From contig CBDCMT010000001.1 in the NCBI GenBank assembly GCA_965219095.1, positions 2,333,095 through 2,397,094 on the forward strand: a stretch of 64,000 nt of DNA, given 5' to 3'. The stretch comes from Bdellovibrionales bacterium (GTDB taxonomy: Bacteria; Bdellovibrionota; Bdellovibrionia; Bdellovibrionales; UBA1609). The number at the start of each line of letters is the position of its first letter. Position 1 is the stretch's first letter. The translations under genes and the position numbers were made by a program. Below are positions 35,481 through 64,000 of the stretch, piece by piece. The notes beneath the pieces were generated by a model. That model made no database searches. It was not told the DNA's origin and worked only from the letters and a program-made list of their open reading frames with translations.

Positions 35481-35614
35481 TAATACCAATTACAGAAATT
35501 AATTCGACATTTTCATGTTCAAATTTAAAATTTTAAAATTGACTTAAGGAAAAGCTTCAGTTAGGAGATTTTAAAAAAACTTCTTTTGAGGGGAGGTTAA
35601 GTTTTCATAAGATA
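35481..35614 (+). mobile_element. End of an unclassified IS (TAATACCAATT terminus); empty IS110 target site
   Basis: Equals the joined flanks of the IS110 copy at 60311-61574, with a single GAC at 35506-35508. Confidence 0.8.
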
Positions 35615-35968: not shown

Positions 35969-37182
35969 TGTAATAGACGTTATATGATCTGACAGTTACC
36001 CTTTCTGGGTTGATAAAAAACTGTCTGTCAGTTTGCGTTCTGTTCAATCATCTTTTGCCTTACTTTTTGTTTTCCGTCAAGGAAAGTTTCCATAGGTGTT
36101 CGACCACAACACATTTTTCCCTGATGAGTTCTCCTTTCATTATATTTCACAAGCCACAAGTCAAGGTCAGACTGCAACTCTTCTATGCTTTTGTACACTT
36201 TTTTTCTAAACTCCACTTGATAAAACTCCTCTAAAATTGTTCTATGAAATCTTTCACAGATGCCATTGGTTTGAGGATGTCTTGCCTTTGTTTTTGTGTG
36301 TTCTATATCATTGATAGCCAAATAAAGCTCATAATCGTGACGATCTTGAACTCCACAGAACTCTGTACCCCTATCTGTTAACATACGAAGCAGGGGCACA
36401 TCATGGTCTTCAAAAAAAGGAAACACTCTATCATTGAGAAGGTCAGCTGCTGTAATAGGTGTTTTCGTTTTATAGAGCTTACAGAAAGCAATTTTTGAGT
36501 AAGTGTCCACAAAGGTTTGTTGATAAAGACGTCCTACACCTTTCATAGTTCCCACATAAAAAGTGTCCTGTGAGCCTAAATAACCAGGATGAGCTGTCTC
36601 TACCTCTCCGCACTCTAAATCCTCTTGTTTCTTCTTCTCTAGGGCTTGTAACTGCTCCTCTGTGAAAACCAAGCCTTCCTCTGCAGACTTCTTTTCTAAA
36701 GCTTTCAAACGCTTTTTGAAAGTCTCTAAATTATTTCTCAGCCAGACCCCTCTAACTCCTGCAGGAGAAATAAAAATTCCTTTTTTCCTTAACTCATTGG
36801 ACGCTCTCAACTGTCCATAGGCAGGAAGTTCTATAGCGATCCTTAAACAAGCCTCTTCTGTCGTTTGATCAACTCTGTTTTTTAAATTAGGCTTTCTACG
36901 ACTTTGCTCTCTTAATGATTCTAAACCTCCTTCCTCTTTGAGTGTCTTGTAACGATAAAATGTATCTCTTGAAAAGCCCATCACCTTACAAGCTTGAGAT
37001 ACATTGCCTAACTCTTCTGCTAATTGCAAAAGACCTACTTTTGATTTTATAATTCTTTCTTGATATGTCATTTTTGTTATCCTTTCTCCACCCTTTGGGG
37101 TGGTATTGTTTATTTAAAAGGGTAACCTCTTTTCATCTCTTTGACATTTCGAGACGTGTCAGATTAAGTTGCGACTATTACA
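35969..37182 (-). mobile_element. IS481-family element, intact transposase 36028-37071
   Basis: TGT...ACA ends with imperfect 26-bp IRs; TDRGTEF, PQTNGICERF. Confidence 0.95.
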
Positions 37183-44380: not shown

Positions 44381-44759
44381 ATCCCCCCCTGTTTGTTCAT
44401 ACATAACTACTCTATATTATAAATATAGAAAAAGCATTTAATGAGTATTTACACACCTAAAAGAAAAAAATCAACTAAAAAAATAAAAATCTCTCTCTTT
44501 GTTTCCTTTAGTCCTATTTTTTATTGTGAAATAAGATCAAAAAAACCACAAATTAAATTTTCTCTTTGTATCAACATAAGACACTTTTATATTAAATTAA
44601 TACAGATCAACCTTGTGACTATTTATAATTCTCTGCAGAAAACCCTCTACACACTGTAAGCCATAAATAGTACAGCAAAATAAGTTACAAAAATTAAACC
44701 GACCACGTCCCCTATATAGGGGGGAGTTTTTTTCTAATACCAATTACAGAAATTAATTC

Positions 44760-47259
44760 GACGGTAAATCAAAAAGACAGGTCACTGGTTTAAGCCATGA
44801 TAGTGACCCTAAAGTACTTGCAGAAGGAGGTGATTTTCGAGACAAATTCTAAACCCTTTAGCTGTCCTGTTTTTTAAGTCCTCAAAGGGTGTTTCCCCTT
44901 TTTTTCGATTAAGCCTGTATTTTTGTGAAGGCTTACTCGAAAAAAAGGAAAAAGCAAAAACAAAGATGTAAAATAGGATTTCAAGACTTTATTTATAAAT
45001 AACCCAAATTCCACGCTAAAAATGATCACTACTGGTTTTCATTTCTCTGAGAAGTTTTTTGTCAATAGCCTTTATGATATTTTCTTGAATTTTGCTTAGA
45101 GCAACTGTTCGAGACATTTGAATTTTTTTCTTTTTATCAGAAAAATAAACTTTGTACAGGTTCTCTAGCTCTTTTAATGCTTGAATTAGCGAAATATCCA
45201 AATTGTAGAGATGTAACTTTAATACGGAAAGCAGAAGATAAGATAAATAACAAATAAAAACATGAGCCACTACTCTGTTGCAAAGCCAGTGTCGCACAGG
45301 ATTTAAATTTGTAACTCCTTTTAAAATTCTGAAAGCTCTTTCTACGACATCTTTATCAAAATAAAGTTTGACCATATCTTTACCAGAAATATTCTTTGTA
45401 GAAAATATACAGGAGTACCCATCAAATTCTTCTGCTTTTTTCAGCTCCTGATCCCTGATCTTTCCTGTGGGAGTTAGATATTTTTTCAGCCCCTCCTTAA
45501 TGGACTTGTTTTGAGATAGACAGTTTTGAGCAGCAACTATCTCATCATATCTCGCCTCTCGAATTGCATCCTTTCTTTTATGGTTGTAGCAGATTGCCAG
45601 TTTTCCTTTAACTTGGCCAAATGTATAATTCATGCTTTTAACGTAAAAAGTATTCTTGTTCAAAATTACCCTATTTGAAACGTTTACTATAGAACCGGAC
45701 TTTAAAAAATTTCGTACTGTCTTCTTCTCAACCTCTCTCATAGGAATTCCGCACAATGTATTCCAACCCAATTCCCCTGTAAGAAAGGTTTTTAGACGAT
45801 GCTATACCTCGATCATACACCAATAGGCCAGAACGAAGATTGTATTCTGAAAAACTATTAACAAGTGCCGTCAATGTCCTGCTATCGTGAATGTTACCCT
45901 TAAAGGTCTTGTGAAAAACAGGAATCCCTTCTTCTTGAGTTACAGCAAGACCTATCTGAATCAGAGGACTCTTCCTTTTCCCATCTTTGCTGTACCCTGG
46001 GTTACCTAGTTGACATTTACTTCCATAAAAATAAGTGTTAGTAACATCAGACAATTTTATTAGATGATAACTTGTATTCTTTTTTAACATTTTCAAAAAT
46101 ACGTTTCTGCAAAGATGGAGCCTTGGATTCGTTAAGCTGATCGAGAGCTGAAAAAAGCCTTCTTTCAGTCAGCCCATCTAAGTTTAAAATGCTGTTTAAA
46201 TCTGTTCGTTCATACCATGATGGCATATTATTGACGCTTCTGTAATCCAAGCAATGAGCATAGACCATACTTAGTATTTCATCTGAATAATTGCCAAGAA
46301 CTTCGGGAAGACCAACTTTTTTTGCAAGGGCATGAAGAACAATCAAGGGACCACTGATCTTAACTTTATCGAATTGAATGTTCTCGGAAGATATAGAGAT
46401 AACACGCTTATGATTCACCTCCTTTCCAAGATATCTCAAGTACTTCTGTACGACCTTGCCCTTGACCCGGACATTTTTCACCTCTGCTAAATAAGTGCTG
46501 CCTCCTCTTTTAATCTTCTTTATAAAACTCATAGTAGTTACCATTATGGTAACTACTTAAAAATAGAAGGGCAAGAGCTTTTCACAGAAAAAAAAGGCAA
46601 TAACCCCATTTTTACTGGAAAACTTCCATCTTATGGAACTTATCTTACTGTTAGAGCAATGTAGTGATCATTTTTAGCGTGGAATTTGGGTAAATAAACC
46701 AACAAAGGAGGAAAATAAAATGTATGATCACTATATAGCCGTAGATTGGGCACAAAGTAACATGGCCATTGCAAGGATGACAGGCAAATCAAAAGATATT
46801 AAGACTATGGACACGATTTCAGATCTTGGAAATCTTCGTGCCTATTTAAAAACTCTGAAAGGTAAGAAGATATTGACTATCGAAGAGACTACAACTTCGA
46901 TAGTGGTTGTATTCAGAATTAAAGGATAGTGTTGATGAACTCATAGTCTGTGATCCTCTTTGGAACAGACTTTTAAGTGAAGGGGCTAAAATAAGTGAAG
47001 GGGCTAAAATTGATAAAATTGATGCTGAAAAACTTATTTTATTGTTACGCTCTGGCCTTTTGAAACCAGTTTTTCACTCAGGTGATGAATTCATTTACCT
47101 TCGTAAGATTGTCAGTGGGTATGAAGATGTGGTTAAAAGAGGAGTTCGTGTTAAAAACCAAAGATCAGCTCTGTTTCGAGCTTCCCATCTTGATGCTAAG
47201 AAGCAGACTCAATTAAAACGGGCGGAAGATATATTTGTTCTAGAAGGCTTAGATAAAGC
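44760..47259 (+). mobile_element. IS110/IS1111 element copy A (interrupted by IS1634-like A, truncated by IS66-B end)
   Basis: DEDD RuvC-like N-terminus YIAVDW...EE...KIDKIDA at 46720-47263 (frameshifted); left end follows TAATACC...TTC-GAC. Confidence 0.85.
45003..46690 (-). mobile_element. IS1634-like element A, second full-length copy
   Basis: Same three ORF translations as 28697-30384; TAAATAA duplication. Confidence 0.93.
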
Positions 47260-47420
47260 GTAAGTCGGTTATCTGACCGCCCTTGACTCCTACGAGAGGT
47301 ATATTTCTTAGATTTTCAAGGGGAAGTTTTTATGGATCTTATTGTAAAACGTTTTCCTAATGCCTTTCCCATTACAAAAATATTAGAGAAGTTCTTCTAG
47401 AATAATTCTTAGTTTTTTTT
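47260..47420 (-). mobile_element. IS66 element B right-end remnant
   Basis: GTAAGTCGGTT end; reverse-complement similarity to about 57405-57580. Confidence 0.8.
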
Positions 47421-54476: not shown

Positions 54477-54939
54477 CGGTAAATAGAAAAAGCAAGGTCA
54501 CTGGTTTAAGCCATGATAGTGATCCTGAAGTACTTGCAGAAGGAGGTGAGCTTCTCGAGACAAATTCTAAACCCTTTAGCTGCTATTGCTTTTTAAGGCC
54601 TCAAAGGGTGTTTTCCCTTTTTTTCGATTAAGCCTGTATTTTAGGCTTACTCAAAAAAAAGGAAAAAGCAAAAAAAAGATGTAAAATAGGATTTCAAGAC
54701 TTTATTTATGAACAACCAACAAAGGAGGAAAATAAAATGTATGATCACTATATAGCCGTAGATTGGGCACAAAGTAACATGGCCATTGCAAGGATGACAG
54801 GCAAATCAAAAGATATTAAGACTATGGACACGATTTCAGATCTTGGAAATCTTCGTGCCTATTTAAAAACTCTGAAAGGTAAGAAGATATTGACTATCGA
54901 AGAGACTACGACTTCACAGTGGTTGTATTCAGAATTAAA
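54477..54939 (+). mobile_element. IS110/IS1111 element copy B (left end and N-terminal fragment)
   Basis: Homologous leader and MYDHYIAVDW ORF at 54737; truncated at GAGGATGTCCC. Confidence 0.85.
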
Positions 54940-55400: not shown

Positions 55401-56651
55401 TGAACTTCCCCTGTTTTTGCGGACAGTCAATTTTCTCTTAAAGTCTCCATAAAATGGAGGTAAAAGAAAGAATGGAAAAAGTAAAACAGTACTCGGAAGA
55501 GTTTAAAAAGCAAGCCATTGAATTGGCAGAGGAAATAGGTGCAAAGGAAGCCTCAGAGAAGCTAGGACTGAGAAATTTCCAAGTGATAAGCTCTTGGAAG
55601 CGTTTTCTAAAGCCTGAAGTAGAAAGACAAGCTTCCCATGACTTGGCTTCGGCATTGGAGGAAATAAAGAGGTTAAAAAAGGAGCTGGTCTATGAGAGGC
55701 GGAGTGTAGGTATATTGAAAGAGGCAGCGGCTTTTTTTTCAAAGGAAATCCTGAAATGAGATTTAAGGCTATGTTTTATGTAAAAGAGAAAGGGCATCCA
55801 GTGCTTCGCATTTGCGAATTATTAAGAGGATCTCGTTCTGGTTTTTATAGTTTTTTAAAAACCAGGGGAAAGCTTGAAAAGGATAAAAATCTGGAGAAAA
55901 ACATAGAATCTATTTTTAAAAAAAATAAAGGCTGTTATGGTTCCCCCAGGGTGTATAGGGAATTAAAGCGTTGCGGAGTGAGTGCTGGAGAAAACAAAGT
56001 AGCTCGAATTATGAAACTAAAGAATCTCAGTGCCCGTCAGAAAAAACCCTATGTTCCTAGAACAACAAAGAATAACCCTCTCATGATTAAGTCTCCTCGG
56101 TTGTTTAAGACAGGACAGAGCCAAGCAGGAAAAGAAAACCAGGTATGGTGTTCGGATTTAACCTATATTCCTTTTAGAGATAAATTTCTGTATTTGGTTG
56201 TATTTTTAGATGTCTATAATCGAGAGATTAAGTCTTGGAAGCTCTGTGAGAGCTTGGACGGGGTTCATTCAAAACAGGCTCTGAGAGCCGCAGTCCAATC
56301 TGTTTCTGGGAACTTAGAGGGCTTGATAATCCACTCGGATCAAGGGGTTCAATATTGTTGTGAAGGGTTTAGAAAAGAATTGAAATTCTTTGGCCTCAAG
56401 CAATCTATGTCTAGGAAAGGAAATTGTTATGATAATGCGTTTGTGGAGAGCTTTTTCCATACGTTGAAGGATGAACTGGAATACAAAGACTGTACAACAA
56501 AGGAAGAGTTGGAAAAAAAAATTGCAATTTACATGGATTGGTATAACAAGGTAAGAATGCATTCTTCCTTGAAATACATGAGCCCAAAAGAATTTAAACA
56601 AAGGAGGGCTTTAAGAACATAAAAACTGTCCACTTTTTTGGGGGAAGATCA
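55401..56651 (+). mobile_element. IS3-family element (OrfA 55454-55759, OrfB 55756-56622)
   Basis: TGA...TCA IRs; ATGA overlap; T-TTT-TTT run; HSDQGVQY, GNCYDNAFVESFF. Confidence 0.95.
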
Positions 56652-57128
56652 CTTACGCTTCTCAAGGCTTTTTACCTCTGCTGTCTTTAAACACATCCCA
56701 CACTGAGAACACTCTGAGGGAGAGACAGTCTCCTCACTGTTTGTATCTTTACTGTTATCAAGTCTAGAGCCCTTTTTTTGACTCCCACTAGCTTTCTTAT
56801 TACGATTCCCTTGACGACTAAAATCTTGCGAAGGAGGAAGACCGCTGTTGCTGGAATTTTTTCGAACCTGTTTTTCTAAAAGCACAACAATCAGAATGTT
56901 CACAACCTTAAAGAGAGATTCAAAAACCACAGAAATCTCAGTAGGCACAGAACCTTTCTTTGCAAGCTTATCAAAGTCACTTCTTATATTTTCAATCTCA
57001 TTTCTGATGGAGGTCTTATTTATTGTCATTTGAAAAGAGTATTTAAAAGAAAATCTGTAAGAGCAAGACTTTTATCTTAAAACAGGTCTAAAGTTAGGGA
57101 TAACTGAACAATGTAGGTGAGCAGTTAC
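56652..57128 (-). mobile_element. IS66 element A left-end fragment
   Basis: Near-identical to 27242-27718, without the first frameshift. Confidence 0.9.
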
Positions 57129-57580
57129 AAAATTCCTATGATCAACAATGAAGCAGAAAGAACGATTCGGCATTCTGTGATGGGAAGAAAGAACTTTCAT
57201 GGGTCAAGGACTCAGAGAGGAGTTGAAACAGCATCAGTACTTTACAGTATTGTGGAAAGTTGTAAGAAGGTGGAATTAGATCCTAAGGACTATATTTTAA
57301 TGGTTGTGGGAAACTCCCTCGATAAGATACCTATTAAAACGCCTTTTGAGTATACAAGTGAGCTTCGTTCTTAAAGAATAAAGCACAAAGAAAATCAAAA
57401 TTACGAAAAAAAACTAAGAATTATTCTTTTAAGAACTTCTCTAATACTTTTGTAACGGGGAAGGCCTTAGGAAAACGTCTTACAACGCTGTTTTACAACA
57501 AGATCAATAAAAACTTCTCCTTTAAAATCTAAGAAATATCCTCCTCAGTAGAAGTCAAGGGCGGTCATATAACCGACTTA
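57129..57580 (+). mobile_element. IS66 element B TnpC C-terminus and right end
   Basis: NNEAERTIR..VMGRKN..GS motif; ends AACCGACTTAC. Confidence 0.85.
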
Positions 57581-57629
57581 CAAAGAAAATACTTTAAAAT
57601 CTAGATTAAAGTTAGGGGATTTTTTTACA

Positions 57630-59636
57630 ATGGCAGTCAATTTTTTTCTATTCAGTCCGATAAGTTGTTATATGAATGGAAAGAAAATCAATGTTTTAGT
57701 CTTAGAAGATCATTCAGAAAGTGCTGAAGCCATTAAAAAAACTTTGGAAAGAGAAGGTGTTAATGTTTATGTCTCAGGTGATCCTTATAAAGCTTTAAAT
57801 TGGATGCGCATGAGGCCTTTTCACTTGTGCTATATTGATTGTCTTCTTCCTAAAATGAACGGTATGATGGTAGCAAAACAACTTAAAAAACAAAACGAGG
57901 CTATCTTTATTTGCTTATTAAGTGGAATTATGAAAGAAGGTCTTGTAAAATCTTTTCCTCATGATATTTTTTTTAAAAAACCTATCACTTCGGAAATGAT
58001 ATTAAATGTTTTTAAACAGTTTAAAAAAAATTTTCTTTCAAATATTGAGAAAGAAGAAGAACAAGAAACAAGTATTTCTCAAATTTTCTCTCATCCTACC
58101 TTCTTGGAGGGAATAGTAGAAGGGGGTTTTTTTCAAGGCAAAGATGATCTTAAAGGCTTCCATGTTTTTTATATTTTAAGTTTGTATTTGAATCAAAAGA
58201 AAAAAGGTTGCTTGAAGGTTACAAAAAAAGATGGTAGCATTACTTCTTTTATTTATTTTAAAAATGGCCTTCTTTATGACATGAAAGGCACTGAATCTCA
58301 AGAAGAAGTTTTTTCTAAACTTATCATTAAAAACAAGATTTTATCTGAGGAAGAGTGGAATGTGCTTGATAAAAGACAAATCATTGTTAATTTAGAAAAA
58401 CATAAAAAAGTGAAAAAAGAGCATTTAGAAAAAATCAGAGAATTTCAATTTAATCATTCTTTAAAAAAAATATATTTGAATCAAAGTCAGTTTTATTTTA
58501 AAGTGATCGAACATGAAACAGAGGCTTCTCAGTTTCCTTTTAGAAAAAACTTTTGGCCTCAGATTCTTAAAGAGAATGTATCTCAGTCCTTTCTAGGTAA
58601 CTATTGGCTTGAGTTTTTTAAACAGTTCTCTACAGCAAAGGTTTTTTTTAAAAAAGATATCTCTTTAGAAGAAGAGGATTTATGGTGGCCATTTTCAAAA
58701 AAAATGAAAGAGGTTTTAGCTAAAGATATGTCAATTTCAAAGGTTATTTCTTCTTTTCCTGATAGAACAGAAGAGGCTATGTTTTATTTAGGTTATTTAA
58801 TTTTAAGGGGAGTGCTTGAATTTGTTGTAGATAAGAAAATAAAAAACCCAGAGAGTACTCTAAAGAATGTTGGAGGAGTGCAAAAAGACATTTTTAAACC
58901 AAGATTAGAGTTGATGTTTAAAAAATTCCAAGGCAGAAGTCCTTATGAAATTTTTCAGTACTTTGGAGCTTCTTCTAAGAGTTCTCCGGAGGATTTAAAA
59001 AAGCTTTATAGAGAGTTTGTAGATTATAACCATGTAGATAAATTGCCAATAGATACAAAGAAAGAAGTTCTAGAGTTGAACAAAAGGATATTTCAACTTG
59101 TTAAAGAAGCCTACGAAACTTTAACTGATCCTAGTAGAAAAGCTGATTATGAAAAAGCTTATGAGAGCAAACAAAGGAAATTGAGGCTGTATGCAGAAGG
59201 GTGTTATGAAAAAAGCGTTCTTTGTATTAGGAAAAAAGAATGGAATAAATCTATTGAATTCTGTGAAAAAGGTTTGGAATTAACTCCTAAAAACAGTGAA
59301 CTCAATATGCAGTGGATTTTTTCTCATCTTTTAAAGGCAAACGTATTAAAAGAACGCCTTTCTCAAAAGATTCTTGATCAAATTGATGGACGCTTAAAAA
59401 TTCTTAAGAAAAAAGACATAAATTTAGAAAAATACTATTTTATAAAAGGGCTTTACTACAAACAAATGAAAGACTTTAAAAAAACTAAAACATATCTAGA
59501 AAAAGCTATTGAGTTAAAACCTGATTTTGTTCAAGCTAAAAAGGAATTAGAGTTTGTCAAATACGCTATCAGAAAAAAAGAGAATGAAGGCACGGAGACT
59601 ATTATTACAAGATTCTTTAGGAAAAAAAGTAGTTAA
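57630..59636 (+). CDS. Response regulator receiver / J-domain / TPR protein
   Basis: LVLED...DCLLPKMNG...KP receiver; J-like PYEIF...YR...HVDK...EAYETL.D...R..Y; C-terminal TPRs; start may be 57672. Confidence 0.82.
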   Translation: MAVNFFLFSPISCYMNGKKINVLVLEDHSESAEAIKKTLEREGVNVYVSGDPYKALNWMRMRPFHLCYIDCLLPKMNGMMVAKQLKKQNEAIFICLLSGIMKEGLVKSFPHDIFFKKPITSEMILNVFKQFKKNFLSNIEKEEEQETSISQIFSHPTFLEGIVEGGFFQGKDDLKGFHVFYILSLYLNQKKKGCLKVTKKDGSITSFIYFKNGLLYDMKGTESQEEVFSKLIIKNKILSEEEWNVLDKRQIIVNLEKHKKVKKEHLEKIREFQFNHSLKKIYLNQSQFYFKVIEHETEASQFPFRKNFWPQILKENVSQSFLGNYWLEFFKQFSTAKVFFKKDISLEEEDLWWPFSKKMKEVLAKDMSISKVISSFPDRTEEAMFYLGYLILRGVLEFVVDKKIKNPESTLKNVGGVQKDIFKPRLELMFKKFQGRSPYEIFQYFGASSKSSPEDLKKLYREFVDYNHVDKLPIDTKKEVLELNKRIFQLVKEAYETLTDPSRKADYEKAYESKQRKLRLYAEGCYEKSVLCIRKKEWNKSIEFCEKGLELTPKNSELNMQWIFSHLLKANVLKERLSQKILDQIDGRLKILKKKDINLEKYYFIKGLYYKQMKDFKKTKTYLEKAIELKPDFVQAKKELEFVKYAIRKKENEGTETIITRFFRKKSS

Positions 59637-59666
59637 AAGAATGTCGAATTAATTTTTAGAAATGGT

Positions 59667-60210
59667 ATAAGATAACTCATGCTTTGTGTGTGGCTCACCT
59701 TTTGAGAGAGCTTAAATTTATAGAAGAAAGCAATGGATTCAAATGGGCTACAAATCTCAAAAAACTTCTTAAAGAGACTGTGGAGTTAGTTCATAAAAAA
59801 GAGTCAAGAGTTCTGACTCAAAAAGAGTACGAAACTCTTCAGAGAAGGTATAGGAGTATTCTTACAAAAGGCTTAAAAGAGCTTCCAGAATTTCCTAAAA
59901 AAAATGGCAAGAAAGGACGAATAAAGCATACACAAGCTCAAAACCTTTGGCTGCGATTTAAAAAGTATGAAGCAGAAATACTGTGTTTTGCTAAAAGAAA
60001 GAACGTAGATCCTACTAATAACAGAGCTGAAAGAAATCTAAGAATGACTAAGGTGAAAAAGAAAGTGTCAGGGTGTTTCAGAACAGAAGAAATGGCGAAA
60101 TATTTTTGTCGTATTACCAGCTATGTTAAAACAATGAGAAATAGAGGGTATTCTTCTTTAGAAGCCATCTCTATGGCTTTAAATAAAAACTTACGAGAGT
60201 GAGCAGTTAC
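59667..60210 (+). mobile_element. IS66 element A right-end fragment
   Basis: Near-identical to reverse complement of 26185-26728. Confidence 0.9.
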
Positions 60211-60310
60211 CATATCTTATGAAAACTTAACCTCCCCTCAAAAGAAGTTTTTTTAAAATCTCCTAACTGAAGCTTTTCCTTAAGTCAATTTTAAATTTGA
60301 ACATAAAAAT

Positions 60311-61574
60311 GTCTATTAAAAAGTATGTCAAGAAAAAACACTTCTCCATTTACAAAAAATATAAAAAATTTTTTTTGCATACAGTCACGAATATTCTAAT
60401 CACCTAAGAAAAAACTTCCTGCATTTCCTTTCCATTTTTTAATGACTCTTCCTTTACACATTGTAAAAAAAACATATTCCTATTATGCGTCTATCTGAAC
60501 CTTTTTTAGTTTTAAATCATGAATTCCAAAGATTTAAAACCTTAGATTATAGTAAATTTCAGGAATAGAGGATGTGCTATTCGTCGAAATGAATTTTTTA
60601 TAAATATCACTCTACTTAAGCTATCTATCCTCACCTCATAAAGTCATTATTTGTATTGTTACTTACTATGCAAGAAACTTTAAACAGATGATTTTATAAG
60701 GTTGTTTTATTATTATTTACATTTTTACGTTCTCCATAAGGTTTATATTTTTTCCCAGACTTGAAAACACCTAAAGTTAAAGCTGCAATTCTTCTAGTTG
60801 GTAGCATTTCTAGCAGTGTGTGGTGGTAAATTTTTTTTGATCAATTCTTCATAAAAATCATTAAATTCATTGTTATTTCCTATAACTGAGAGTGCAGCTA
60901 TCTTAAAAACACTTTTCATTTGTGGGCAAAACCTAGACTTCTTAGTTCCATAAGACCTTCCACTACTCATTTTATGTAGCTTTACAAGTCCGCAGTCCAC
61001 TCCACCAGGAATTACGTTTAAATCGGTGAGGCACTACAACCCTGGCTACAATCTTGATAGCCTTGATAGAACCAATTCCTGGAATGCTACTAAGATTGCT
61101 AATATCTTTGTGTTTTTTACTTAGCCTCTTAAACTCTGCTTCATATAGTCAATATCTTCTTACCTTTCAGAGTTTTTAAATAGGCACGAAGATTCCCAAG
61201 ATCTGAAATCGTGTCCATAGTCTTAATATCTTTTGATTTGCCTGTCATCCTTGAAATGGCCATGTTACTTTGTGCCCAATCTACGGCTATATAGTGATCA
61301 TACATTTTATTTTCCTCCTTTGTTGGTTTATTTATAAATAAAGTCTTGAAATCCTATTTTACATCTTTTTTTTGCTTTTTCCTTTTTTTCGAGTAAGCCT
61401 TCACAAAAATACAGGCTTAATCGAAAAAAAAGGGAAAACACACCCTTTGAGGCCTTAAAAACCAGGCCAGCTAAAGGGTTTAGAATTTGTCTCGAAAAGC
61501 TCACCTCCTTCTGCAAGTACTTTAGGGTCACTATCATGGCTTAAACCAGTGACCTGTCTTTTTGATTTACCGTC
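60311..61574 (-). mobile_element. IS110/IS1111 element copy C, both ends intact, recombinase internally deleted
   Basis: GAC core at both junctions; N-terminus at 61306; IPGIG, CGLV...SSG, RRIA C-terminal motifs at about 60700-61145. Confidence 0.88.
60330..60700 (-). ncRNA. Candidate bridge RNA / seekRNA in IS110 right non-coding end
   Basis: Target-like TTCGAC and donor-like ATAGAC each followed by a hairpin; 10-bp stem between; boundaries unknown. Confidence 0.55.
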
Positions 61575-61730
61575 GAATTAATTTCTGTAATTGGTATTAT
61601 CCCTTATTTTCTTTTTTGTACTCCTAGGGGTTTTGTTCAGATTCTCTCTTGAAACAAAGCTGTCCCTAAACAAGTCTTTTAGCGAGTAGGGCTTTTTTTT
61701 TGGTGGAAATCCTATAGAATAAAAAGAGGG

Positions 61731-62399
61731 ATGAAAGGAATGAAAAGAGGGTTTTTAGCACTTAGTGTTTTGCTTCTTGGTATGGCTTTAGGGGGATTTT
61801 TTACTTTAAACTCTTGGGATGGAAAGGTCTTTTTTTATCCTTTTTCGGAAGAGGGAGGAGATCATCGTGAGCTTGCGGCCATTGAATCTAAATTAGATAT
61901 CTCTCAATTTAAGGGTGTTCATTTTAAGAGTGCAAGTATCAGAAGATTGTTGCTGGGAGCTAAAACGATTCAAAAAGGAGATCAACAATCCATTGCTTTA
62001 GGGCATTTTATAAGAATTAACGCTTTAGGGAAAAAAGAGTTTGCCTGCGATTTTTATCGCTTCATAAAACTTAAGTTTCATGGAGATGGACTTTCCGTTT
62101 CAGGAGCACCTGTGGAAATGCATATTGTGATTCCTTGCCAGTACAATAGAAACTCTGAGATGATCAAAGAGGTTTTGCTACCTAATAAAAAGGAGTTGAA
62201 GAAAGCCGACCTAAGGGTTCCTGTTTTGTTAGGGGAACAAAGCACTTTGACCATGAAGAATTTTTATGGTTTTTGGCCTAAAAGGTGGGTACTTTATTCA
62301 TTAAAAATGGTAAGAGCCCCTTCGTCAAGAGACAACCTCGTTCTTAAAAAGAAAGAGATCAATAAAGTTTTAAAAGGTCATTTTACATTATTTTGGTGA
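61731..62399 (+). CDS. Hypothetical membrane-anchored or secreted protein
   Basis: 222-aa ORF, hydrophobic N-terminus. Confidence 0.75.
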   Translation: MKGMKRGFLALSVLLLGMALGGFFTLNSWDGKVFFYPFSEEGGDHRELAAIESKLDISQFKGVHFKSASIRRLLLGAKTIQKGDQQSIALGHFIRINALGKKEFACDFYRFIKLKFHGDGLSVSGAPVEMHIVIPCQYNRNSEMIKEVLLPNKKELKKADLRVPVLLGEQSTLTMKNFYGFWPKRWVLYSLKMVRAPSSRDNLVLKKKEINKVLKGHFTLFW

Positions 62400-62494
62400 T
62401 AAAGGTGTTTTTTTACTCCTAACTGCTTTTTATCTTGACTTATAAAAAACTTACATCTATTCTGAAGAAAGAAAAAAGGAGGAGGTACGTATGT

Positions 62495-63124
62495 ATGACA
62501 TCTCTTACGCCTAAAGAGAAAGATTTTTTACAATTTGTAGAAACGTTTTATGAAGATCGAGGTTATTCCCCTTCTTTTATAGAAATACAAGAGCACTTTC
62601 AATATGCTTCTATCAATTCAGTGCAAAAATACATTAAACAACTTCAAAAGAAAGGATACCTTTATTCTCCGGGGCAAAATAAAAAACGTGCCTTAAAAGT
62701 TTTACGTTCTCACAACTTTAAACCCTCAAAGAATGAAGCTTTTTCCGCAAACGTCATTGCTTTTTTAGGAAAAGTCGCTGCAGGACGTCCTTTAGAAAGA
62801 GTTCACTCAGGTGAATTTATAGAGGTTTCAGATCATTTGACACAAAATCATAAAGATATTTTTGCTCTTGAAGTGGAAGGACAATCTATGATCGATGAAG
62901 GTATTTTAGAAGGAGATGTTCTTTTGATCCGAAAAAAGATTCACTACGATAACGGAAGCCTTGTTGTAGCTAGTGTTGAAGAAGGTGCTACAGTTAAAAA
63001 AATGTACAAACATAAAGATTGTATTGAATTAAGACCTTCTTGTGAAGGTATGGAATCTTTGTACTATAGTTATGATCAGGTTCGTATTGAAGGTTTTGTA
63101 GTAAGCTTGATGAGACGTTTTTAA
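62495..63124 (+). CDS. lexA: SOS repressor LexA
   Basis: LT..E...GYSPS..EI winged helix, VAAG cleavage site, G.SM and TVK catalytic dyad; ATG after AGGAGG. Confidence 0.93.
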   Translation: MTSLTPKEKDFLQFVETFYEDRGYSPSFIEIQEHFQYASINSVQKYIKQLQKKGYLYSPGQNKKRALKVLRSHNFKPSKNEAFSANVIAFLGKVAAGRPLERVHSGEFIEVSDHLTQNHKDIFALEVEGQSMIDEGILEGDVLLIRKKIHYDNGSLVVASVEEGATVKKMYKHKDCIELRPSCEGMESLYYSYDQVRIEGFVVSLMRRF

Positions 63125-64000
63125 ATGAAAACCCATAGGTTAAAAATTAAGAAAAAAGAAAATATATCAGATAACGCAACTATTTTCACTCTAGAAATAC
63201 CTAAGGAATTAAAGTCAGTTTTTCATTATGTCTGTGGCCAATATTTAACAGCTATTTTAAACATTGATGGTCGTAAAATTGGAAGAGGCTATTCTATTGC
63301 CTCATGTCCTTATACAGATCAAGACATGGAATTTGCTGTAAAAAAAATCCCTCGTGGCAAAACCTCTGTTTATGTAGTCGATAGTCTTAAAGAAGGAGAT
63401 TTTTTAGAGGTTACAACTCCTCAAGGTCATTTCTTTGATACAAGTGAAAACATAGAATCTCTTCATTACGTTTTAATAGGGGCCGGAAGTGGCATCACCC
63501 CTCTTTTTAGTATTTTGAAAACAGTACTTATTGAGAACAAAGATAATAAAGCAACACTTTTTTACGGAAATCGATTTGAGGAAGATATCATTTTTAAAAA
63601 GGAGTTAGATTCTTTAGAAGAAAAGTATAAAAATCGTCTTTTTGTAACACATTTTTTAAGCCAAGCCTCTAACAAGTGGGAAGGTCGAAGAGGCAGAATA
63701 TCAGAAGAAGATATAAAAGAAATGGTTGAGGACTTAAAAACAAAAATACTTCCTATGACATTTTATATTTGCGGTCCTGAAATCATGATGAAAACAGCTC
63801 AAAAAACTATTCTTGATTGTGGAATTGAAGAGAAAAGAATTCATATAGAATGGTACCATGCTCCTCATCCTACAGAGCCTAAGAAAGAACTTTCAGATCA
63901 TCATTCTAAAACTTTGTTAGATTCTGAAAGTGTATTTATAGGTACGGGAGAACCCTCCCTTTCTCCAGAAACTTTAGTGGCTTTTTTAGATGGTGAGGAA
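63125..64000 (+). CDS. FNR-like oxidoreductase (PaaE/KshB-type), runs off window
   Basis: Manual translation: GQY, RGYSIAS, GAGSGITP, YGNR, YICGP. Confidence 0.85.
   Translation, partial: MKTHRLKIKKKENISDNATIFTLEIPKELKSVFHYVCGQYLTAILNIDGRKIGRGYSIASCPYTDQDMEFAVKKIPRGKTSVYVVDSLKEGDFLEVTTPQGHFFDTSENIESLHYVLIGAGSGITPLFSILKTVLIENKDNKATLFYGNRFEEDIIFKKELDSLEEKYKNRLFVTHFLSQASNKWEGRRGRISEEDIKEMVEDLKTKILPMTFYICGPEIMMKTAQKTILDCGIEEKRIHIEWYHAPHPTEPKKELSDHHSKTLLDSESVFIGTGEPSLSPETLVAFLDGEE

Follow-up and report, generated by a model that had tools for sequence, protein, structure and literature searches.

IS4321 and IS5075, IS1111-family elements that Partridge and Hall reportedly described in 2003, are said to have the 38-bp repeat of Tn21-family transposons as their host. 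The element described here, called ISX, resembles them in that it occupies the terminal inverted repeat of a different mobile element at a fixed position and in a fixed orientation, and differs from them in that its host is an insertion sequence (IS) of the IS630 family, with a second site at the transposase start codon. For the IS1111 elements ISEc11, ISKpn4, ISPa11 and ISPst6, which use a seekRNA or bridge RNA, the consulted parts of PMC11187229 describe a DEDD recombinase of ~330-350 aa, subterminal inverted repeats, a long non-coding region downstream of the gene, natural retargeting through replaced matching bases and a promoter formed from the joined ends, and ISX is like them in these respects. 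Unlike these elements, ISX is dead, targets an IS630-family IS and has an RNA without an Rfam family, and its clade scores just under the NCBI equivalog cut-off for IS110 transposases. The likeness to IS1111 concerns the ends, the RNA layout and the non-coding region.

The second system for comparison is IS621, whose bridge RNA, according to the sections of PMC11208160 drawn on here, consists of a target and a donor module and has left guides that repeat flank and core, as in ISX. In IS621 and in the ISX clade, the left-target guide is followed by bases that match the start of the left end, which can be compared with the ‘handshake guides’ in the consulted part of Hiraizumi et al. 2026 (PMC13626964), and the recombinases are homologous. 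Unlike in IS621, the RNA of the ISX clade is located in the right end and not in the left, its target guides follow each other in the opposite order, and the elements have long inverted repeats. In this clade, donor and target have a single core base (C) in common, and the search for a right-donor guide found none. The mechanism is already known (Siddiquee et al. 2024, Durrant et al. 2024) and knowledge of it is unchanged by ISX, which is a well-documented new example.

The window, meaning the whole analysed stretch of 64,000 nucleotides, belongs to a genome of 3.11 Mb in two contigs with 34% G+C. Copies of ISX were collected by BLAST using copy C of the window and a full-length copy as queries. 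ISX is an IS110-family element of ~1.66 kb that occurs genome-wide in ~72 chained fragments, with only one uninterrupted full-length copy of 1,657 nt in the whole genome. A second copy lacks 58 nt of the leader, and two further complete copies contain nested ISs. A DNA search with the full ISX in 40 related genomes gave no real match beyond the source genome. A survey of sequencing runs gave four from a single study that contain this DNA and none of RNA. Copy C is best explained, with a probability of about 0.85, as the fossil of an IS1111-type IS110-family element that once inserted by its own guide RNA into two fixed sites of an IS630-family IS. This explanation draws on the observed anatomy, flank statistics, complementarity of guides and flanks, recurrence in homologues and covariation of a stem. 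It agrees with the sequence-only reading of the locus, which had proposed an RNA-guided IS110/IS1111 element targeting the end of a co-resident IS and which is now backed by the flank statistics, the identification of the IS630-family target, and the guide conservation and covariation in homologues. The copies of ISX in the window, the parts of copy C and the corresponding empty site are as follows.

35481..35614, plus strand: empty site 1, uninterrupted, with a single GAC
44760..47260, plus strand: copy A, with the left end and the leader to ~45005, a nested IS1634-family element at ~45006-46690, and the 5' part of the recombinase, truncated at ~47260
54487..54915, plus strand: copy B, the left part of a diverged ISX subfamily (94% identity), with another left flank and a TTC junction
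60311-61574, minus strand: copy C, a broken ISX inside the inverted repeat of an abundant IS630-family IS
61575..61599, minus strand: left target flank of copy C, TA and the outer ~20 nt of the IS630-family inverted repeat (..TACCAATTACAGAAATTAATTC)
61572..61574, minus strand: left junction GAC, of which the final C is the effective common core, AC being common here
61548..61571, minus strand: ISX left end, GGTAAATCAAAAAGACAGGTCAC, with one half of the subterminal inverted repeat and the -10-like TAAATC
61306..61547, minus strand: 5' untranslated leader, with a long palindromic hairpin that some copies lack (58 nt)
60694..61305, minus strand: remnant of the DEDD recombinase gene, with ATG at 61305, an internal deletion of ~390 nt near 61143 and frameshifts in common with other copies
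60311..60331, minus strand: ISX right end, with the -35-like TTGACA (60331-60326), the other half of the subterminal inverted repeat and the terminal ..AATAGAC
60213..60310, minus strand: right target flank of copy C, IS630-family interior, then cut by an IS66 fragment

The IS66 fragment beside copy C (59684-60202) was considered as the target and rejected, as the target encodes an IS630-family transposase.

Copy C has lost ~390 nt from the middle of its gene, and the ISX recombinase as a whole is readable only in pieces, to which a homologue aligns in frames 3, 1, 3, and 1 along the element. With the gene split across frames, the ISX fragment reached 24.6 bits (E 2.5e-5) against DEDD_Tnp_IS110 (PF01548), under the cut-off of 29, which was passed by the intact homologues P0003 and P0024 with 40.3 and 40.6 bits, respectively. 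Both homologues also passed PF02371 with 49.9 bits. A 68-aa piece of ISX gave no Pfam match, and a whole-genome search with PF02371 recovered no ISX copy. This piece aligns to residues 206-300 of P0003 with 36% identity and reads GLVKLHKMSSG where the homologues read GLVxxxxxSGG. A HMMER search of 1.84 billion proteins with the ISX fragment found 463 relatives at E<=0.001, and the full-length homologues P0002 and P0003 share 61 and 59% identity with this fragment. Full-length relatives are 325-355 aa long. On NF033542, ‘IS110 family RNA-guided transposase’, P0003 scored 134 bits, below the cut-off of 140, and it matched the IS621 transposase in the PDB (8wt6) with an E-value of 2.4e-7.

Four frameshifts of the recombinase gene are common to 16/17, 12/13, 14/14, and 14/16 of the copies that cover the respective position, and only fragments of the diverged subfamily differ there. 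Genome-wide, no open frame of at least 200 aa resembles the ISX recombinase, and the assembly holds no intact copy. With frameshifts in common and the intact recombinase gone, ISX is therefore a dead fossil, a record of past activity in which nothing is functional now.

The right junction of copy C reads ...TTTTTAATA-GAC-ATTTTTATGTTC. The subterminal inverted repeats of ISX start 5-8 nt from the tips, with ATCAAAAAG..GTCA read both in the left end and in the reverse complement of the right end; for the IS1111 group, subterminal inverted repeats of 7-17 bp are given in the consulted part of PMC11208160. The non-coding regions comprise 383-384 nt after the stop codon and 268 nt upstream of the gene. 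When the ends are joined they read TTGACA, 17 nt, TAAATC, with the spacing counted from the sequence, and a junction promoter arising from joined ends is the general description for IS1111 elements in the portions of Siddiquee et al. (PMC11187229) that were consulted.

The target IS is a 1.43-kb element between TA that encodes a 354-aa IS630-family transposase (NF033545 with 211 bits at a cut-off of 100; DDE_3 domain). It contains two sites for ISX that lie ~1.3 kb apart. Site 1, ..AATTAATTC-GAC-ATTTTTAT, is located ~20 nt inside the IS630 inverted repeat. Site 2, ..TTTTTTC-GAC-ACTCTAA, lies at the second codon, in the start region of the transposase gene, and was absent from the sequence-only reading. 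Either insertion would be expected to disable the host IS630. Among 43 ISX left ends, 25 abut ..CCAATTACAGAAATTAATTC-GAC and thus carry the same ~24-nt flank, as a targeted insertion had led that reading to expect, and four abut ..AAATCTTTTTTC-GAC. The 25 right ends are followed by ATTTTTATG in seven cases and by ACTCTAAAAA (also written ACTCTAAAAATTT) in twelve. Site 1 occurs 137 times in the genome, of which 86 are uninterrupted, 25 continue into an ISX left end and two into left-end remnants. Site 2 occurs 126 times and is mostly empty, with 13-14 occurrences after an ISX right end and five preceded by a right-end remnant that adjoins a third IS. No relevant report emerged when the literature was searched for IS110-family elements lying within IS630 repeats, which is not to say that there is none.

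Copies A and C had been described as starting after the same flank, and the arms at 44735-44833 and 61501-61599 are 100% complementary over 99 nt. The joined flanks of copy C, said to reproduce 35481-35614 with a single GAC, do so with 99% identity over the 86 nt compared (35529-35614 with 60213-60298), apart from two small differences that had been omitted, one T/C change and an 8-nt indel. Insertion is site- and orientation-specific and involves no terminal inverted repeats. It leaves no target duplication beyond the common GAC, as had likewise been stated, with one GAC in empty sites and one at each junction. Some flanks count against a guided insertion. Four left ends (..CAGATCATAT-AAC) as well as the sole uninterrupted full-length copy have surroundings without a match to the left guide, and several copies have mixed flanks, the left one from site 1 and the right one from site 2.

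The right-end region of copy C contains the following candidate RNA features, which were placed with the help of homologous elements.

60617..60632, minus strand: 5' strand of the closing stem, GAGGAT, and the degenerate anchor GATAGATAGCTTA (family block AGAGAGCTCA), from the alignment, the consensus stem and the MFE fold of ISX
60608..60614, minus strand: T segment (predicted right-target guide), allele b TAGAGTG, complementary to C+ACTCTA of site 2
60582..60593, minus strand: B segment (predicted left-target guide), TTCATTTCGAC + G, in which TTCGAC matches the left flank of site 1 and TTTCGAC that of site 2
60568..60573, minus strand: 3' strand of the closing stem, ATCCTC, from the consensus and the ISX fold
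60545..60562, minus strand: conserved block CTGAAATTTACTATAATC (family consensus CTnnAATTTATCGTAGCCC), from the alignment
60509..60540, minus strand: variable hairpin with a perfect 10-bp stem (60540-60531 with 60518-60509) between the target and donor modules, at a place where the family is variable
60488..60495, minus strand: D segment (predicted left-donor guide), GATAGACG, equal to the right end GATAG + AC + the first G of the left end, with AATAG at the end of copy C itself

The motifs named by the sequence-only reading, CATTTCGAC (60591-60583), ATAGAC (60494-60489), the hairpin GAATAG/CTATTC and the 10-bp stem, all lie at the positions given for them. Its proposal that two of them are guide segments fits the sequence, in which CATTTCGAC would be B, the left-target guide, and ATAGAC a part of the donor segment GATAGACG. 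The sequence of the GAATAG/CTATTC hairpin is present, but this hairpin competes with the long-range closing stem that is conserved in the family. No support was found for the second-strand guides suggested earlier (GAAAT/ATTTAC and TTTAC/AATGT), which are located where the family is either conserved or unaligned. The place assigned to the second-strand target guide is instead 5' of the first guide, at 60614-60608.

The T segment occurs in two alleles. Allele a, ATAAAAATG, is complementary to C+ATTTTTAT of site 1 and is found in seven copies, and allele b, TTAGAGTG or TAGAGTG, is found in nine copies, among them copy C and the duplicate of it on the other contig. The match is 9 nt between allele a and site 1 and 7 nt between allele b of copy C and site 2, compared with 3 nt for the cross matches. 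The alleles differ at three positions, which are exactly those that follow the differences between site 1 and site 2. Judging by the bases, allele b could pair with site 1 too, through two G-T wobbles. Between the left guide and the left flanks, 5-6 nt and the C agree. Computed at family-defined positions, the chance probability against random genome words was ~0.001 for allele a and site 1, 0.004 for allele b and site 2, and 0.0003-0.0006 for the left guide.

Other features of the ISX copies count against guided insertion. The T allele of a copy is uncorrelated with its own right flank: the seven copies with allele a have site 2 on the right in three cases, site 1 in one, and another or no flank in three, and copies with allele b have site 2 in four and site 1 in two to three. 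ISX is also off the family pattern after B, with the trinucleotide GAA against GGT in the left end, and both anchor blocks are degenerate. A second donor guide, pairing with the left end, was not identified, and a permutation test for it was uninformative as the ends are too conserved in the sample.

The predicted right-end RNA is without an Rfam family. At gathering thresholds, Rfam gave 0 matches in the whole 64-kb window, and permissive searches gave only sub-threshold matches of ISX to miRNA, leader, sRNA and snoRNA models, all on the leader hairpin, and two unrelated sub-threshold matches in the homologue L018.

Two sites, each matched by its own T allele, require at least two guided events. 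How many of the ISX copies arose in this manner is a separate matter, and it is an even question whether real insertions were few and most copies passive, with ISX moved as cargo of IS630 or by segmental duplication. The repeated flank would then say little on the frequency of targeting, and such a history is compatible with RNA-guided founding events. It is favored by the frameshifts common to nearly all copies and the lack of an intact recombinase, as well as by the arrangement of the copies. At 14 loci, the ISX right end is followed by 86 nt of IS630, nearly always of one subtype, then by the right inverted repeat of IS630, TA and unique flank, and two complete ISX lie between an outer left repeat and a right repeat of IS630. 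At least five copies at different loci carry an IS1634-like element nested at one and the same point of ISX, shortly before the T segment, and these copies occupy both kinds of site. The final 8.6 kb of the window, including copy C, are repeated in the other contig with 99.99% identity. A single IS630 subtype (..GATTAAAAAG), seldom seen at empty sites, accounts for nearly all flanks of occupied site 2, and independent insertions are thus far fewer than copies.

Against a mainly passive origin, clean site 1 insertions are present in at least three IS630 sequence variants, so several guided events occurred. Insertion at site 1 also splits the IS630 repeat ~20 nt from its tip, which may block movement mediated by IS630, and trans mobilisation by a lost intact ISX explains the common frameshifts equally well. 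Part of the ISX copy number is probably passive, carried as cargo between IS630 inverted repeats or in IS630-bounded composites. In the simplest account, dead copies kept spreading in trans via a lost intact copy, passively between IS630 repeats, or both, and homologous recombination scrambled the ISX flanks.

The guided founding insertions of the preferred explanation were further compared with homologous elements. Of 79 homologue loci fetched, the 50 with RNA anchors caught by regular expressions were analyzed. Most of the nearest Bdellovibrionales loci are among the other 29, which the guide tests left out. Exact ends and flanks come from five families that are present in multiple copies in other genomes. 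In 4/5 of these families, a stretch of 8-9 nt is the reverse complement of the right flank from the crossover C. It is placed 270-320 nt from the tip in the right-end region, and the same position in ISX is taken by ATAAAAATG. The first half of the family RNA runs from the conserved block AGAGAGCTCA over T and a variable hairpin to B, which repeats the left flank and the core and leads into the first bases of the left end. The second half consists of TTAGCC with a conserved block, a hairpin, a second AGAGAGCTCA and the segment [GA]ATAG + core + G, a repeat of the right end. In ISX and in the homologues, T is located on the 5' side of B, which is the order reported for IS1111-type seekRNAs in the consulted part of Siddiquee et al. 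(PMC11187229).

The covariation between guide and target that the sequence-only reading implied is found in these loci, related members of which are not independent: T matches its own right flank by at least 7 nt in 26/28 distinct T sequences (one with 6 and one with 3; mean 7.96), compared with 1.3% of 756 mismatched pairings (mean 3.31), and B has at least four contiguous matches to its own left flank beyond the conserved bases in 14/23, compared with 1.4% of 506 mismatched pairings. In 26/26 rows, the three bases following B are identical to those that open the left end, with two states, and the variable base of the donor segment after ATAG equals the last base of the right end in 21/21 rows. 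The donor-side handshake match to the right flank is weak, reaching at least 2 nt in 57% of 30 rows against 21% of mismatched pairings. Between donor and target, the family junctions have only the C of the core in common.

A consensus stem of 14 pairs closes around T and B, and 12 of the pairs show compensatory changes. In this structure, which was derived from the same alignment on which covariation was scored, 93.8% of cells are paired, compared with 77.2% in shuffles and 39-62% in slid controls, and the observed value was reached by 0/500 shuffles for pairing and by 0/500 for the covariation score. The ISX sequence alone folds into the same closing stem, and its single-sequence fold is no better than that of shuffles (z -1.4).

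These results also bear on recognition by the protein only, in which the recombinase would have read TTCGAC-type sites and the matches in the right end would be fortuitous or serve translation control or termination. TTCGAC is short, and the AT-richness of ISX makes matches such as ATAAAAATG easier to obtain by chance. Such recognition is nevertheless very improbable given chance probabilities of 0.001-0.004 and 0.0003-0.0006 at positions fixed by the family, where unrelated targets are matched in 26/28 and 14/23 homologous elements, and given that all three allele differences are compensatory to the site differences. RNA dependence has moreover been shown for members of IS1111 and IS110, according to the consulted parts of PMC11187229 and PMC11208160.

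The ends are kept in homologues of other genomes as G[GA]TAAA..AAAG..GGTC on the left and CTTGAC..CTTT..ATAG on the right, although the flanks of these homologues are unrelated. Their subterminal repeats covary, as in ATGAGAAAG, ATGGGAAAG, and TTAGTAAAG, and their non-coding regions measure ~440-460 nt downstream and 120-145 nt upstream of the gene. That the 24-nt left flank, identical in most copies, is a longer ISX left end with no targeting of another IS can hardly be entertained and is refuted by the empty site 1 copies, 86 of which run straight into the IS630 interior with one GAC and no ISX, by the identity of the flank with the terminal inverted repeat of an IS630-transposase element beside TA, and by the left end G[GA]TAAA.. 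of the homologues.

As a guided element, ISX would have followed the established cycle of IS110 and IS1111 elements, from which transcription, RNA-protein binding, the circle intermediate and the chemistry are taken by analogy. ISX would have been excised as a circle, in which the joined right and left ends would form the promoter TTGACA, 17 nt, TAAATC. A transcript from there would cover the DEDD recombinase gene and continue into the right-end non-coding region of 383 nt, and this region would fold as a bridge RNA or seekRNA. Its target module would be an internal loop closed by the conserved stem and containing two guide segments. The 5' T segment would pair with the target top strand to the right of the crossover C, and the 3' B segment, which repeats left flank and core, would pair with the bottom strand. 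The second module would carry GATAG+AC+G, repeating right end and core. Insertion would then take place in one orientation and without target duplication at site 1 and site 2 of the IS630-family IS.

A broader reading joins natural guide reprogramming in one genome, IS630 cargo transport after the death of ISX, a single-base core and a compact RNA scaffold absent from Rfam, and as a whole it is doubtful. Within it, three T substitutions may switch ISX between the IS630 inverted repeat and the start codon, and the G-containing allele could read both sites via G-T wobble pairs. Dead ISX may have survived as cargo of IS630 composites, so that one element would have used two unrelated transposition systems. 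The homologue clade may need only one common core base and, if this is true, it would provide a compact RNA scaffold that is not yet in Rfam.

ISX represents a clean natural case of RNA-guided parasitism of one IS on another, with two positions of the host IS used and two guide alleles side by side in one genome. The intact homologues have a conserved RNA layout of ~200 nt with clearly delimited programmable segments and are raw material for cataloguing and engineering bridge recombinases. Their clade is widespread in assemblies of uncultured Bdellovibrionales, Desulfobacterota, Nitrospirota, Bacteroidota, and Chlamydiia. In the source genome, the load of nested ISs is heavy, and ISX forms one layer of it.

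Among the homologous elements of other genomes, the base preceding the C shared by element and target has a split origin at the junctions of loci L026–L037 and L018–L020: at the left junction it derives from the target, at the right junction from the element (for example, CC with GT; AC with GC). This split origin suggests that the strands are exchanged between the two “core” positions, with only a single base having to be shared. In addition to its score on the IS110 model, the homologous recombinase P0003 produced, over residues 121–249, a match to the NCBI “TIGR-Tas system RNA-guided endonuclease” model of 51 bits, which is below the cut-off of 100.

A diverged right-end region resembling that of ISX, the decayed IS1111-type element present in many copies in this genome, was found on contig 2, and a second fragment resembling it lies at ~625716 of the same contig.

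Contig 2, ~1616980–1617330, minus strand: L094, diverged ISX-like right-end region

The B segment of L094, corresponding to the left-target guide of the predicted right-end RNA, is CATTCTATC and matches the left junction of L094 itself (..CTATC). At the position of the T segment, the right-target guide, L094 carries a stretch complementary to the left end of the element itself (..CTATTTACCG), 26 nt away from this end. Given these two matches, the target module of L094 would be predicted to recognise an occupied left junction.

Complete ISX copies occur on contig 2 around 1748055–1749760 and 1168759–1171930. On one side these copies adjoin the outermost ~20 nt of the left IS630 repeat, and on the other side a stretch of 86 nt that closes with the right IS630 repeat and TA. 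This arrangement forms an IS630-bounded composite, which the IS630 transposase could mobilise.

Other insertion sequences are nested in ISX or adjoin it. The leader of copy A holds an IS1634-family element (window 45006–46690), and a related IS occupies one common ISX position in at least five other copies, which lie at separate loci and represent both kinds of target site.

ISX element positions 1344–1352: insertion point of the related IS (9-nt overlap), directly upstream of the T segment

A third IS, one end of which reads ..GGCTGGTCATCCATAT, directly borders a 16-nt ISX right-end remnant at several loci (5 sites preceding the sequence of site 2, at the IS630 transposase start codon), and in two other ISX copies it breaks the right end at the same position. 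Nested ISs make the window largely a mosaic, in which a further transposase gene and a transposase fragment were identified.

36028–37071, minus strand: IS481-family transposase gene that looks intact (283 bits against a cut-off of 224)
59684–60202, plus strand: C-terminal fragment of an IS66-family transposase

The ISX leader also contains a 58-nt palindromic hairpin (window 61380–61440, minus strand), which is found at the same place in other copies and is cleanly missing in ~10. Leaders of the homologues from other genomes measure only 120–145 nt.

The terminal 8.6 kb of the window (55401–64000), which reach the contig end, recur in the interior of the other contig, inverted and at 99.99% identity. 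This repeat reflects a large duplicated segment or else overlap in the assembly, and copy C and its counterpart on the other contig are consequently not independent.
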